From Candidatus Woesearchaeota archaeon (GTDB lineage: Archaea; Nanobdellota; Nanobdellia; Woesearchaeales; UBA583): DNA of 64,000 bases. The stretch is from assembly GCA_965205335.1 (NCBI GenBank), contig OZ242164.1, forward strand, positions 1,088,001 through 1,152,000. The letters are read 5' to 3'. The first letter of the stretch is position 1. Each line of letters starts with the position of its first letter. A program made the position numbers and the translations under genes. The notes beneath the pieces are model-generated. The model was not told the DNA's origin. It was given only the letters and a program-made list of their open reading frames with translations, and ran no database searches. This document shows, in pieces, positions 11,423 to 15,705 of the stretch.

Positions 11423-11509
11423 TTTTAACTCTAAATTATATTTAAAAGAGTACTGTAATAAGAAAAAGTAATTTAGTTTGGTTTTTAAAGGTTGGGGTAA
11501 TTCGAGTGT

Positions 11510-11956
11510 TTAGTTAAGGTTGGTGTCATATTGTAATTGTTTGTTTTCAATGTTTTTTAGTCTGTGTAGTATGTCTTTGTTTTCTGATATGAATTTTCTC
11601 ATTTCTACAAATGCATTTATTATCTGAATGCTTATTTTGATTGCGGTTTTGCTGTGAAGTGCTGCTGAGAGCATTGAGACACCCTGTTCTGTGAAAGCGT
11701 AAGGCAGGTATTTCCTATATTTTCCTTTCCCTTTTTCTAAGGTTGCAATTTGTGACCTTAAAGAATCATACTCTTCTTGAGTTAGTTGAAACATAAATTC
11801 TTTAGGAAACCTCTCACTGTTTCTTTTGACTTGTTGATTTAATCTTTTTACTTCTACTTGGTAAAATTCAGCTAAATCAGAATCAAGCATGACTTGAACT
11901 CCTCTAATAATATGAATTTTATTTTCTATGTTTTTAATTAAGACAGTTTTTTCCAT
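11510..11956 (-). CDS. ORF6N (KilA-N-like) DNA-binding protein, probably C-terminally truncated
   Basis: IRGVQVMLDSDLAEFYQVEVKRLNQQVKRNSERFP..FMFQLT, LPYAFTEQGVSMLS. Confidence 0.9.
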   Translation of the reverse strand: MEKTVLIKNIENKIHIIRGVQVMLDSDLAEFYQVEVKRLNQQVKRNSERFPKEFMFQLTQEEYDSLRSQIATLEKGKGKYRKYLPYAFTEQGVSMLSAALHSKTAIKISIQIINAFVEMRKFISENKDILHRLKNIENKQLQYDTNLN

Positions 11957-12044
11957 TCTGTTTTTATATCTCTACTCTTATTATTACTTATAAGATTTTT
12001 TAGAGAGTTTTTCAAAATTATTAAGAATTTGAATAATAACTCGG

Positions 12045-13628
12045 TTAAATTTGATTCATCAGGTTTAGGACTTTTTCTTTGTTTTCTATTATGAAAGTGC
12101 TTAGTTTTGGACCTTTGTCTTTGCCAATTATTAGTCTGTACATTATTTTAAAGAAATGAATTGTATCAAGGTTATGGGTTGTTGCGATTTCTCTAAATTT
12201 AGACATCATTTCATTTGAATCGTCAGTTATTTCAAGTTCTTTTTTGAGTCTTGTTATTGCATCTTTTTCATTTTTTTTGAGATTGTTTATGTAGTCCTCT
12301 GGAACAATTTGATGAATTTTAAATTTCATTTCGTCTGGAGCGTAATCCCAAAGCCAGTTTTTAGCACATTGGGTTCTTTGTTCTAATCTTATGTTGTCAA
12401 ATTGAGTTTTTAGTTCATCTTTAAAGTGTTCTTTGATTTTATCAATATTAAAGTCATTTGCCTGAGCAACTGTTGTTAGATGTCTAAAACTTGGCTGGAA
12501 TGGACATTCTTTCTGGATTTTATCACCATTAATCGCTGAAAGTTCATAAACTCTTTTTAGTGTGGCAAGTTTTTTTTGGTTTTTTTCTTTCTCTAATCCG
12601 TAATATATTCTTTCAAGTTTGTCAAAGTCTTCGTAGATTTTTATTACGTCCAAGTCAAATGAGATGTCAAATTCAGAGTTTGGTCTTGAACCTGCAAATA
12701 AGTATAAGACCATTTGAGGAGTGTAGACCTCCAAGACATCGCAAACTCTAAGAGCGTTTCCTTTTGAGGATGATATTTTTCCTCCCTGTCCTTTGATTCT
12801 GACAAAGTCATACATTGTATATACTGGTGGTTCACGTTCAAAGATTTGTCTGATTATTTCACAGCCTGTTGTGTATGAACTGCCAGCAGTTGAATGGTCT
12901 TTTCCCCCCGGTTCAAAGTTTACTTTGTAATAGTCCCACCTCATAGGCCAGTCTGCTTTCCATCTTAGTTTTACTCTTGGGTTTTGTTTGAAGTTGATTT
13001 CTTTTTCTGTGCCTTTTTCGTTTGTGTAGGTTAAGGTGTATTCTCCGTCATATGAGATGATTTTGTTTGTGTCTTTTTTTGTTTCGTTGTCGTATATATC
13101 TATGGGCATCCAAGTGTTAGGCCGGGATTCATCTCTGTATTTGTTTAATGCATCAATTACTTTGTGTTTGTTATTTAGGACTTTTTTTATTGAGTTCGCA
13201 TATATTCCGCTTCGCTGGAGTTCATATTGGTTCTGAAAGCCAATCGGGAAGTTGAATACTGAGATTTCGTTTTCAAATGTTTTCATGAATTCTTCTGCAT
13301 AAGAACCTTCGCCAAATGGGTTTGGAACTTCTCCGTCCGGCATTCTAAGGTATTTTTCCCATTCTTCTGGAACATCACTTGGAACTTTTCTGAATGCATC
13401 GTATGAATCCCAAGAGTAGATGAATTTGACTTTTTCCCCTTTGTCAATAAGAGCACGTCTTACCATTTCAGTTGTGATTAGTTCTCGGAAGTTTCCAATG
13501 TGAATGTATCCGCTTGGAGTAATTCCCGAATATACTACATATTCTTTTTCATTGGGAAATTTATCTATTGTTCTTTGAGCTGAATTATCCGCCCAGTACA
13601 CGTTTTCAAATGATATTCCTTTTTTCAT
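12045..13628 (-). CDS. lysS: Class I lysyl-tRNA synthetase (C-terminal part of the 879-aa ORF; possible own start MKKGISF)
   Basis: YWAD, SGITPSGYIHIGNFRE, KLRWKADWPMRW, FEPGGKDH, KISSSKGN, KGPKLSTFI. Confidence 0.97.
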   Translation of the reverse strand: MKKGISFENVYWADNSAQRTIDKFPNEKEYVVYSGITPSGYIHIGNFRELITTEMVRRALIDKGEKVKFIYSWDSYDAFRKVPSDVPEEWEKYLRMPDGEVPNPFGEGSYAEEFMKTFENEISVFNFPIGFQNQYELQRSGIYANSIKKVLNNKHKVIDALNKYRDESRPNTWMPIDIYDNETKKDTNKIISYDGEYTLTYTNEKGTEKEINFKQNPRVKLRWKADWPMRWDYYKVNFEPGGKDHSTAGSSYTTGCEIIRQIFEREPPVYTMYDFVRIKGQGGKISSSKGNALRVCDVLEVYTPQMVLYLFAGSRPNSEFDISFDLDVIKIYEDFDKLERIYYGLEKEKNQKKLATLKRVYELSAINGDKIQKECPFQPSFRHLTTVAQANDFNIDKIKEHFKDELKTQFDNIRLEQRTQCAKNWLWDYAPDEMKFKIHQIVPEDYINNLKKNEKDAITRLKKELEITDDSNEMMSKFREIATTHNLDTIHFFKIMYRLIIGKDKGPKLSTFIIENKEKVLNLMNQI

Positions 13629-14684
13629 TTGATTTTGGTTCTTGTGATTCTTTTCTTTGCTTCTCATTTTATTTCTTGGTTTTGTAATGTTTAAATATTC
13701 TTCTGCTATTTGTTTTAAATATTTATCTAATTTATGTATAAATTCATCTTCATCATTCAAGTGTGTAATTACTGTTTTTGATGGTATATGTAAACTCTTA
13801 TTAGGAAAATTATCTTTTAATGATAAGTTGTTAATTTCATTCACAATTTCATTTAAATTTTTTTGGTCTTTTATATCCTCTTTAATAAATCTCTTAATAT
13901 TTTCAATTATATTTTCGTATTGAAAAGGACTTGAGTCTAATTTTCTGAATATATTTTCTTTCTTTTGTTTGAAAATATTTTCGCTTTTATTAATTTTATA
14001 TAAATCAAACATATCTCTTGGTTTAAATTGCTCTCTTGTAATTGTTGCTCTTATTTTTTCTAATATTATCTCGTCTATTGAATATGCATTTAAAATAGGT
14101 TTCACTAAATTATAATTTGTAAGTGCTAATTCTGTTTTATCTAATGAATAATAATCAATAATATTTTTTATTTCAAGTTTATTCGGTTTATTTATTAAAT
14201 CTTCAAAAAATGATATTTCAATTTTGATAGGTGATTCAAGGTTAGAATAAATTGATTTATAATATAAGTTAAGAATGTATAATTTTCTGGAATTTATATC
14301 TCTGATGTATTTTTCATTTGTCCTGTCTTCTTCAAATTCTAATTTGGACATATCAGCTATTTTTTTGATTTCGCTAATAATCGGAATAACTCTCTTTTTA
14401 ATCTCTCTTTCTCTTCTATTTTTTGTTTGTGTTTCTCTTATTTTATTAGCGTCCTGATGAGTAAAATCCAAGTCCTCACTAATTCTATGGTATTTAAGAT
14501 AATTCTTGGTTAGTAATGTTCCTCCTTTAAATATCAACTTGTCTAAGTTCGGTGTTTCTTGCTTCGCCCAGTTCGATAAGAACAACGAGAGAACATAATC
14601 TTTTTCTAAAAAATCTTCTGAAATAGGAGCATGTATCTCTTTTTTTAGTTTATCAACATACAATCTAAGTTCCTTATTATTCAT
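12045..14684 (-). CDS. AbiEii/AbiGii-family nucleotidyltransferase toxin fused in frame to class I LysRS (879 aa)
   Basis: N-terminal LEKDYVL, LIFKGGTLL...YHRISEDLDF, EKIRA..R..PRDMFDL; no stop codon before LysRS. Confidence 0.85.
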   Translation of the reverse strand: MNNKELRLYVDKLKKEIHAPISEDFLEKDYVLSLFLSNWAKQETPNLDKLIFKGGTLLTKNYLKYHRISEDLDFTHQDANKIRETQTKNRREREIKKRVIPIISEIKKIADMSKLEFEEDRTNEKYIRDINSRKLYILNLYYKSIYSNLESPIKIEISFFEDLINKPNKLEIKNIIDYYSLDKTELALTNYNLVKPILNAYSIDEIILEKIRATITREQFKPRDMFDLYKINKSENIFKQKKENIFRKLDSSPFQYENIIENIKRFIKEDIKDQKNLNEIVNEINNLSLKDNFPNKSLHIPSKTVITHLNDEDEFIHKLDKYLKQIAEEYLNITKPRNKMRSKEKNHKNQNQMKKGISFENVYWADNSAQRTIDKFPNEKEYVVYSGITPSGYIHIGNFRELITTEMVRRALIDKGEKVKFIYSWDSYDAFRKVPSDVPEEWEKYLRMPDGEVPNPFGEGSYAEEFMKTFENEISVFNFPIGFQNQYELQRSGIYANSIKKVLNNKHKVIDALNKYRDESRPNTWMPIDIYDNETKKDTNKIISYDGEYTLTYTNEKGTEKEINFKQNPRVKLRWKADWPMRWDYYKVNFEPGGKDHSTAGSSYTTGCEIIRQIFEREPPVYTMYDFVRIKGQGGKISSSKGNALRVCDVLEVYTPQMVLYLFAGSRPNSEFDISFDLDVIKIYEDFDKLERIYYGLEKEKNQKKLATLKRVYELSAINGDKIQKECPFQPSFRHLTTVAQANDFNIDKIKEHFKDELKTQFDNIRLEQRTQCAKNWLWDYAPDEMKFKIHQIVPEDYINNLKKNEKDAITRLKKELEITDDSNEMMSKFREIATTHNLDTIHFFKIMYRLIIGKDKGPKLSTFIIENKEKVLNLMNQI
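13665..13725. repeat. 61-bp direct repeat, copy 1 (3' end of the AbiEii domain)
   Basis: 58/61 identical to 15407-15467. Confidence 0.92.
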
Positions 14685-15315
14685 CTTTATATAACCCTTC
14701 TTTTACTTTCTTCTGAAATGTCTTTGGATAATCACTTAATATAGAAATTACTTTTGATTTGTCAATTGCTTTTTCTAATTCTATTGGTACTCTTTTTTTG
14801 AAATAAATAAAATCTAAATATATTTTCTCATTTAAACCGATATTCTGGGTTATTCTGTTTTTTGTTTTGTTTTGTTTGTAATTATCTTGTTTGTAATTGT
14901 TTATGTGCTGAGGTTTTGTTTTTTTGAAGTCAAATTTAGTTCTTATTATTGTTTTTTCTCCTGAGATTTTATTGTTGATAATGTTTATTTTCTTGTGAGC
15001 CTGCCATAATATGTTATTTAATTCTAAGCCTTTTTCAAGTGAAATATACCATTTTACATTTGATTTATTTAGAACACTAAACACTAACTCAGATGGATTG
15101 TATCTCAGTTGATTAAGTCTTCTTTCGTTATCCGATAGTATATAGTAATAGTTTTGGATTATAAATTTAATTTTTCTATTTTCTCTTAGTTTCTTTAGGT
15201 ATTTTTCAGGTTCGTCTTGCACTACATCACGAATTAGTTCAATTAATAATTTTTTTGAAACAATCTTTTCCTCCAAATTATCCAATTTAAAGTACAATAT
15301 GTATATTTCTTTCAT
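14677..15315 (-). CDS. AbiEi-family antitoxin / transcriptional regulator (type IV TA)
   Basis: WYISLEKGLELNNILWQ and EKIYLDFIYF resemble AbiEi motifs; stop overlaps the AbiEii start. Confidence 0.75.
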   Translation of the reverse strand: MKEIYILYFKLDNLEEKIVSKKLLIELIRDVVQDEPEKYLKKLRENRKIKFIIQNYYYILSDNERRLNQLRYNPSELVFSVLNKSNVKWYISLEKGLELNNILWQAHKKINIINNKISGEKTIIRTKFDFKKTKPQHINNYKQDNYKQNKTKNRITQNIGLNEKIYLDFIYFKKRVPIELEKAIDKSKVISILSDYPKTFQKKVKEGLYKDE

Positions 15316-15365
15316 TTTTATTAAATTTTATTTGGAAGCGTTTATTTATAAATATATTGCTCAGT

Positions 15366-15388
15366 ATTATTGATTTTTTATCAATAAT
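15366..15388. promoter_or_regulatory. Perfect inverted repeat ATTATTGAT-N5-ATCAATAAT, likely AbiEi operator
   Basis: Lies just upstream of the TATA-like tttataaa (about 15345-15352) of the abiE operon. Confidence 0.6.
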
Positions 15389-15406
15389 CAGAAATAATTT
15401 TTATAG

Positions 15407-15467
15407 CATTTTATTTCTTGATTCTGTAACGTTTAAATATTCTTCTGCTATTTGTTTTAAATATTTA
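15407..15467. repeat. 61-bp direct repeat, copy 2 (relic AbiEii 3' end with stop codon)
   Basis: Minus strand reads KYLKQIAEEYLNVTESRNKML* (stop at 15401-15403). Confidence 0.9.
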
Positions 15468-15525
15468 ACTCCTATATAATCCTTATTTTACTTTGTTTTG
15501 AAATATCCTTTCGTAATTATCTAAC

Positions 15526-15705
15526 TTAACTTTTATATCCAAATTTTTTGTTATATGTCTTATGATCAACTATTGCAAGAATAAATGCAATTATCTCTAC
15601 CTCATTTCCTTTTATTGTATAAAGCAGTCTCCAAAAATTTGAAAGTTCAACTCTGTATAGATTTTCATATTGTGAATATTCCTTTGAAATACATTCTATT
15701 TTCAT
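15526..15705 (-). pseudogene. Truncated RelE/ParE-like toxin (59 aa)
   Basis: MKIECISKEYSQYENLYRVELSNFWRLLYTIKGNEVEIIAFILAIVDHKTYNKKFGYKS*; resembles the C-terminal half of archaeal RelE-like proteins. Confidence 0.6.

Follow-up and report, generated by a model that had tools for sequence, protein, structure and literature searches.

An AbiE-type toxin gene without a stop codon reads in frame into lysS of a Woesearchaeota archaeon, probably as an accident of recombination

Introduction

Does an open reading frame (ORF) that joins a toxin to an aminoacyl-tRNA synthetase encode a hybrid enzyme, or does it record an accident at the border of two genes? The question is raised by a locus of a Candidatus Woesearchaeota archaeon (GenBank assembly GCA_965205335.1) in which an AbiEii-type nucleotidyltransferase (NTase) toxin gene, preceded by a putative AbiEi antitoxin gene, continues without a stop codon into lysS, the gene for a class I lysyl-tRNA synthetase (LysRS). 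The stretch analysed, referred to here as the window, comprises 64,000 nucleotides (positions 1,088,001 to 1,152,000 of contig OZ242164.1), and all coordinates below count from its first letter. The original prediction for this locus had proposed either a toxin-synthetase chimera or a toxin-antitoxin (TA) module that had placed an essential gene under its own promoter, and had mentioned loss of the toxin stop as a mundane option. The results described here favour the last of these: the toxin stop was probably removed at a recombination junction, LysRS would still be made from its own start codon, Met340 of the fused frame, and the 104-kDa fusion would be a minor read-through by-product.

Toxins of the DUF1814 kind are described as carrying four conserved NTase motifs, I and II of the pol-beta type and III and IV C-terminal (PMC7450476). 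The same source gives tRNA acceptor ends as the site of action of these toxins, states that MenT3 extends tRNA 3'-CCA ends by pyrimidines and prevents their charging, and mentions that AbiEi has been reported to bind and repress the abiE promoter.

Results

An AbiEii toxin and a complete LysRS in one frame

The fused frame occupies positions 12045..14684 of the minus strand in the ORF list (879 aa, calculated mass 104.5 kDa) and consists of a toxin part and a synthetase part, residues 1-339 and 340-879.

13668..14684, minus strand: AbiEii/DUF1814 toxin part, residues 1-339, without a stop of its own (Pfam, PADLOC, invariant motif columns, predicted fold)
12045..13667, minus strand: lysS, class I LysRS, 540 aa if read from Met340 (TIGR00467; 540-aa homologue P0001)

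The toxin part is intact. The AbiEii family PF08843 matches residues 47-262 of the fused ORF (E 1.6e-21, 77.7 bits against a cut-off of 22.5) and the PADLOC AbiEii model matches the first 339 residues (E 2.3e-35). When eight AbiEii homologues, the window included, were aligned, the columns of FKGGTLL, YHRISEDLDF and EK.RA..TR...K.RD..D proved invariant in all eight, and we read these strings as the putative NTase motifs I-IV. A structure model of the toxin part, compared over residues 1-337 (predicted local distance difference test score, pLDDT, 76.8; predicted template-modelling score 0.79), gave 13 matches in the PDB at E<=0.001, all of them to DUF1814-type nucleotidyltransferases (JHP933, a related H. 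pylori NTase, MenT3/TglT and MenT4). Searched by sequence, the PDB returned nothing useful, the best match being a profile match to MenT4 with an E of 0.049. By homology to MenT3, the likely chemistry of the toxin part is modification of tRNA acceptor ends. It is not encoded as a separate protein of about 300 aa ending at a stop of its own, as the frame goes on into lysS; between the two genes we found neither a stop codon nor a run of at least five T.

The synthetase part is complete. PF01921, the class I LysRS family, matches residues 363-718 of the fused ORF over model positions 2-359 of 360 (E 6e-110), and the equivalog model TIGR00467 (lysS_arch) is matched over positions 2-499 of 515 with 462.3 bits against a cut-off of 147.55. 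Both the ORF list and the Pfam, NCBIfam and alignment results therefore agree with the original prediction in finding AbiEii motifs and a complete class I LysRS in an ORF of 879 aa. The translation contains the strings HIGN and KISSSKG, which we take to be class I synthetase motifs. In the genome, which is a single contig of 1.2 Mb (95% complete, 30.9% GC), the fused ORF holds the sole PF01921 match above the cut-off and thus the only class I LysRS found; no class II LysRS scored above the cut-off there (best TIGR00499 match 92 bits against 427.6). By these profile matches, the LysRS part is an ordinary class I enzyme. Its nearest homologues are labelled Woesearchaeota or Nanoarchaeota in their sources, which indicates a DPANN-type archaeon.

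Near its C-terminal end the toxin carries two insertions, of about 6 and about 13 residues, that are absent from the seven other aligned homologues. They fall at toxin residues ~272-316 (13700-13870, minus strand), and the structure model is of low confidence at residues 287-308, which cover the second insertion.

Met340 is the likely start codon of LysRS

The closest LysRS homologue, P0001, has 540 aa, is 91% identical over the compared part and begins with MESKEKNHKNQNQ at the equivalent of Met340. The stretch NKMRSKEKNHKNQNQ, which had been described as a short linker, is thus from Met340 on the N-terminal tail of LysRS. The natural start of the enzyme is therefore likely to be Met340 (ATG at 13667-13665), which gives exactly 540 aa with a calculated mass of 63.8 kDa. 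The internal start named in the original prediction lies 13 codons further on:

13626..13628, minus strand: Met353, the start proposed earlier, less likely (promoter score -0.18; Thr in P0001)

P0001 has Thr at the position of Met353. So the mundane option fits best in its two main elements, a lost toxin stop and a LysRS with its own start, and needs correction as to the start codon, Met340 instead of the Met at 13628. On the toxin side of the border, stand-alone AbiEii homologues end 0-14 residues after an IAEEF motif; in the window, the corresponding IAEEY is followed by a TATA box and then by Met340.

Two further observations concern LysRS genes of relatives. Some same-genus or related enzymes (loci L013, L014 and L015 of genomes G014, G005 and G019, and proteins P0010 and P0014-P0021) have 685-735 aa with a C-terminal tRNA_bind domain (PF01588), a domain which the LysRS of the window does not have. 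The match to lysS of the same-genus genome G006 (locus L012, C36:1682-3277) contains two in-frame TAG codons, which could mean a broken gene, a sequencing error or recoding.

A candidate lysS promoter within the last toxin codons

It had been argued that the locus leaves no intergenic space for a lysS promoter. The genome-wide spacing of TATA boxes contradicts this argument, as a TATA box stands at the typical distance of -28 from Met340, inside the last codons of the toxin.

13690..13697, minus strand: TATTTAAA, TATA box at -30..-23 from the Met340 ATG, candidate lysS promoter inside the toxin codons (weight matrix, TATA spacing in the genome)

The spacing was taken from 651 ORFs of at least 120 aa with an upstream gap of at least 60 nt, the first ATG being used as the start. 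TATA-like hexamers before these ATGs peak at -29 (131 ORFs), -28 (85) and -30 (67), and almost none are found at -26 to -22. At Met340, TTTAAA begins at -28 and a purine-rich AGAAGAA stands just before it. Scored with a position weight matrix derived from the 651 starts, this upstream region reaches 4.16, the 55th percentile of the 651 starts and a value attained by 1.7% of 4178 internal in-frame ATGs; the score of Met353, -0.18, is background-like, with 22% of internal ATGs scoring as high. The TATA-like motif in the -31..-27 range precedes 253 of the 651 gene starts and 67 of the 4178 internal ATGs, a ratio of about 24. The lysS genes of relatives were also scanned by pattern, and in the 8 of 11 loci that were read (L012, L018 and L019 were not), a TATA-like motif lies at -27..-30 in five and at -37..-40 in three. 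Taken together, these comparisons predict a lysS promoter within the last ten codons of the toxin.

The sharp peak at -28 to -30 further indicates that the mRNAs of this genome are mostly leaderless, an observation useful for start-codon calling in this DPANN archaeon.

The antitoxin-like gene and the abiE promoter

A second ORF precedes the fused ORF and shares 8 nt with its start, and two candidate regulatory elements lie upstream of both:

14677..15315, minus strand: abiEi-like gene, 212 aa, putative antitoxin and autoregulator (PADLOC; homologues 61-69% identical precede stand-alone AbiEii genes in genomes G013 and G005)
15345..15352, minus strand: abiE promoter candidate, a TATA-like TTTATAAA that precedes the abiEi start codon by 37 nt (both it and its flanks are conserved in G013 and G005)
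15366..15388, unstranded: candidate operator for AbiEi, formed by the perfect inverted repeat ATTATTGAT-N5-ATCAATAAT immediately upstream of the abiE TATA box (sequence reading and script)

The assignment of the 212-aa protein to AbiEi is partly supported. Residues 17-206 match positions 15-203 of 205 of the PADLOC AbiEi model PDLC02273 (E 5.5e-8), and the gene is directly upstream of AbiEii, as is an AbiEi-like neighbour in 72 of 80 AbiEii loci, and has an inverted repeat in its promoter. No Pfam or NCBIfam family was matched at E<=0.01, and the structure model of the protein (pLDDT 40.8) is too low in confidence for use. Of the antitoxin gene overlapping the toxin start that had been proposed, the overlap is confirmed and the family name depends on the PADLOC model and the conserved pairing.

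Stand-alone cassettes homologous to that of the window occur in G013 and G005, where proteins of 203 or 204 aa and 323 or 314 aa, 54-69% identical to those of the window, are encoded by genes with an 8-11-nt overlap. The same palindrome, read as ATTATTGA-N6-TCAATAAT, lies upstream of both of these modules at the same distance from the start codon as in the window (three of three modules), and their TATA-like elements are at -34 and -33. This conservation of the palindrome and TATA region is as expected of an autoregulated AbiE unit.

Direct repeats bracket the cassette

The cassette lies between two copies of a direct repeat of 64-71 nt (family D1), spaced by 1742 nt:

13665..13735, unstranded: repeat copy B, with the last ~20 toxin codons, the lysS TATA box and the Met340 ATG (repeat comparison)
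15407..15477, unstranded: relic of a toxin 3' end, repeat copy A, which lies upstream of the cassette and runs through ATG, CTA and TAA (Leu, stop) (repeat comparison)

The copies align without gaps and are 90% identical over 71 nt and 94% identical over 64 nt. By our own count from the printed copies they share an exact core of 37 nt (13689-13725 = 15431-15467), which fits the ends of the contigs described below. Both encode the toxin C-terminal KYLKQIAEEYLN, followed by about 20 nt and an ATG. Their homology ends exactly after this ATG, copy A going on to CTA TAA and copy B to lysS. Copy A thus reads as a relic toxin 3' end that still has its stop, and in the live copy lysS sequence takes over after the ATG. 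Either a tandem duplication that later decayed or a Campbell-type integration into a relic may have produced the repeat, and recombination between the copies could delete the cassette, leaving promoter, ATG and lysS. With 24% GC, the cassette is poorer in GC than lysS (34.5%) and the genome as a whole.

The junction was compared with assembled Logan contigs of four data sets (X1, X2, X4 and X5), not with raw reads; ten further contig pieces were not included. X1 and X2 are two runs of the same sample, probably the source sample, and their contigs match 11879-13718 and 13696-15460 without a single difference, so that no indel is seen at the junction. An indel hiding a stop was accordingly rejected as an explanation: the repeat copies are gapless, the frame from Met340 matches P0001 and the contigs show no difference.

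A relative represented by an X4 contig from another study differs from the window at 111 positions in 2177 nt. This contig joins 13685 to 15186 with 106 other letters between them, and read in order it has the last part of copy A, remnants of the abiEi 5' end, the 106 letters and lysS from 18 nt before the ATG. It follows that lysS of this relative, which is ~95% identical in lysS, stands without the toxin.

The fusion was found in one genome

Other fusions of AbiEii to LysRS were sought, as had been suggested, and none turned up. No match spanning toxin and LysRS was found in the 19 same-genus genomes, of which 14 gave a match, 12 to the LysRS part (from query residue 343 or later) and two to the toxin part only. 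None of 96 close LysRS homologues (483-1539 aa) combines the AbiEii and LysRS Pfam domains, and among 1.84 billion representative proteins none of the best 150 of 2469 matches covers both parts; the long LysRS forms among these representatives carry B3_4, aldehyde dehydrogenase, tRNA_bind or metallophosphatase domains instead. Approached from the toxin, the best 80 of 170 confirmed AbiEii loci of species-representative genomes, with flanks of up to 3 kb, contain no LysRS within these flanks and no open frame above 400 aa (maximum 389 aa, median 319). In none of these four surveys, then, does the architecture recur in relatives, as that of a fixed multidomain synthetase would. A genus-wide DNA search with the junction returned only the 5' part of lysS, short AbiEii 3' matches in relatives and the second copy in the same genome, and a back-translated pattern of the LysRS N-terminal tail had no match in metagenome contigs. 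A literature search, limited to accessible text, found no AbiEii/aminoacyl-tRNA synthetase fusion and led only to work on MenT toxins.

Five of the 19 same-genus genomes (G007, G008, G016, G017 and G018, one of them single-contig and 94% complete) gave no match to the class I LysRS query, and these may have another or a divergent LysRS.

The surroundings of lysS

In 11 relatives, rpl3, S15, the ORF6N gene and the ParE-like ORF are all missing from the 1.5 kb around lysS. In the window, a 148-aa ORF6N-domain protein is encoded at 11510-11956 of the minus strand (Pfam E 2.8e-35; PADLOC candidate defence family PDC-S05, E 6e-63). It is short compared with a 303-aa homologue near the AbiE cassette of G005; the X4 relative has ~430 extra letters at the 3' end of the gene, and an X5 relative is without the gene (11502-12044 skipped). 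A 59-aa ORF at 15526-15705 of the minus strand weakly resembles ParE-like toxins (Pfam E 9.6e-4, a score below the cut-off) and scores well for a promoter (3.71). With the ParE-like ORF, AbiE and ORF6N, the neighbourhood of lysS looks like a small defence/TA island between ribosomal-protein operons.

Discussion

Loss of the toxin stop with retention of the LysRS start

The account that we consider probable is the following. A mobile, AT-rich, two-gene cassette of AbiE type would have come to sit directly upstream of lysS, and the recombination would have cost the toxin its own last codons and its stop at the junction. The toxin frame would then cross some 30 nt of lysS promoter into Met340 and through the synthetase. 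LysRS would be made mainly as the 540-aa protein from a leaderless mRNA starting at Met340, while the abiE promoter would presumably be repressed by the AbiEi-like protein at the palindrome. Transcripts that do leave the abiE promoter would meet no stop and no oligo-T terminator before lysS and would give some 104-kDa AbiEii-LysRS, and this fusion protein is probably made at some level. The probability that a random join of the two genes is in frame and free of stops was computed as ~0.126, about 1 in 8, so that no selection is needed to explain the fused ORF. Most likely, therefore, the ORF is an accident of a promoter-in-ORF architecture, a recent one-off and not a designed hybrid enzyme.

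Several points weigh against this account. The promoter statistics were obtained with crude ORF calls of our own. Repeat copy A has an identical TATA box and ATG, followed by an ORF of only two codons, so the motif alone is no proof of use. In the X4 relative, the similarity that runs through lysS breaks off 18 nt ahead of the ATG, so that this TATA box is not kept; what this relative has retained of the abiEi 5' end and of the sequence upstream of it also fits a lysS driven from upstream. Both the internal promoter and the two protein products are predictions made from sequence alone. Lastly, toxin and antitoxin genes are intact with all conserved motifs, which suits a fused toxin that still works as well as a recent event and does not discriminate between a by-product and a selected chimera.

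A functional chimera would be a selected 104-kDa AbiEii-LysRS in which the synthetase brings the NTase to tRNA-Lys, or in which the tether tunes or stabilises the toxin. That the frame stays open over 879 codons in a genome of 31% GC, that the toxin motifs and the whole LysRS are intact, and that neither a stop nor a run of at least five T separates the parts, so that some fusion protein is probably made, all speak for it, as do the known tRNA acceptor-end activity of DUF1814 toxins (PMC7450476) and the tolerance of class I LysRS for domains added at the N-terminus in other proteins (B3_4 in P0097 and P0205, Aldedh in P0151 and P0160). We nevertheless hold a selected chimera to be unlikely: it is a singleton, with no fused form in any of the four homologue and locus surveys; the relative ~95% identical in lysS does without the toxin; the junction consists of the N-terminal tail of LysRS and offers no dedicated linker, with a pLDDT below 50 at residues 338-353; the short form still has a canonical promoter and start; and about one random join in eight would give the same ORF. 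Comparative evidence thus lends no support to the chimera directed at tRNA-Lys or at defence that had been envisaged. There is likewise only a slim chance that a tethered toxin aims at tRNA-Lys or couples charging to defence, with a cassette that switches between stop-terminated and fused forms by recombination.

Under promoter capture, the AbiEi-controlled abiE promoter would be the sole source of lysS transcripts, and perhaps of the translated protein, so that the TA cassette would control an essential gene and could not be lost. The missing intergenic space between toxin and lysS and the conservation of the abiE promoter and operator palindrome would suit this arrangement, and so would the X4 relative, which lost the toxin and kept stretches that match the abiEi 5' end (15186-15254) and the region upstream of it (15375-15416), its similarity stopping at a point beyond which the TATA box would lie. 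Set against this are the TATA box at exactly the genome-typical distance from Met340, the own TATA box of lysS in relatives, the flanking repeats that would allow clean loss of the cassette, and the cost of tying a sole LysRS to a repressed TA promoter; with no fused or adjacent homologue and a toxin-free relative, comparison does not bear out such a capture of an essential gene, and we judge it improbable. Still less credible is a mis-resolved 37-nt repeat, in which case the true lysS would stand behind the relic copy and the toxin would end ...NKML-stop on a circle or in a tandem elsewhere. In the X1 and X2 Logan contigs the breaks do fall exactly on the two repeat copies (11879-13718, 13696-15460, 15438-...), an integrated cassette cannot be separated from an empty site plus a circle in a k=31 graph, and under this alternative the toxin would have an ordinary stop and lysS an ordinary upstream region. 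However, ordinary reads are longer than a 37-nt repeat, and the genome consists of a single 1.2-Mb contig; the depth of the cassette contig (3.8, 3.4) equals that of its flanks (4.8, 3.3, 4.3, 3.0); a 1.7-kb circle with the TA pair only would have no replication gene; and a single X4 contig from another study has the end of copy A, the abiEi 5' relic and lysS in order.

If loss of the stop at a recombination junction is the true explanation, the locus serves chiefly as a warning and as a small snapshot of evolution. Where archaea have leaderless mRNAs, a promoter can sit inside the preceding ORF, and a single lost stop then creates a striking fusion ORF with the main product unchanged; annotation pipelines would report a toxin-synthetase of 879 aa. 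The locus would catch a gene fusion at birth, with a mobile TA cassette, a relic copy that has its stop and a close relative already free of the toxin. Should the fusion protein act, it would be the single case in these searches of an aminoacyl-tRNA synthetase joined to a toxin that targets tRNA, and would offer a direct handle on the choice of tRNA by DUF1814 toxins.

Comparison with known systems

The predicted fold relates the toxin to the MenAT systems (MenT3/TglT, MenT4, MenT1), matching MenT3/TglT and MenT4 with E values of 1e-5 to 1e-4 and template-modelling scores of ~0.46-0.57, whereas sequence identity is only 11-16% and the MenAT toxins are stand-alone proteins. Class I LysRS enzymes with appended B3_4, tRNA_bind, aldehyde dehydrogenase or metallophosphatase domains resemble the fused ORF in having an extra N- or C-terminal domain in one polypeptide; tRNA_bind and B3_4 each recur in several separate clusters or representatives, whereas the AbiEii addition was found once. 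Much closer are the stand-alone cassettes of G013 and G005, alike in the protein identity of both genes, in the gene overlap and in the promoter palindrome and TATA region. They differ in that the toxin has its own stop 0-14 residues past IAEEF and in that they lie in other neighbourhoods, not beside lysS.

With the AbiE type IV TA and abortive infection systems of Streptococcus agalactiae and lactococcal plasmids, the cassette shares a regulator-like gene that is upstream of, and overlaps, a DUF1814 NTase gene, matches to the Pfam and PADLOC AbiEii models and to the PADLOC AbiEi model, and an inverted repeat in the promoter. Unlike these systems, it has an archaeal host, an antitoxin outside the Pfam AbiEi families and a toxin that runs without a stop into lysS. 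On these grounds the cassette appears to be a new archaeal member of the AbiE/DUF1814 kind, and its in-frame union with lysS a new variant, so far unique to this genome among those surveyed.

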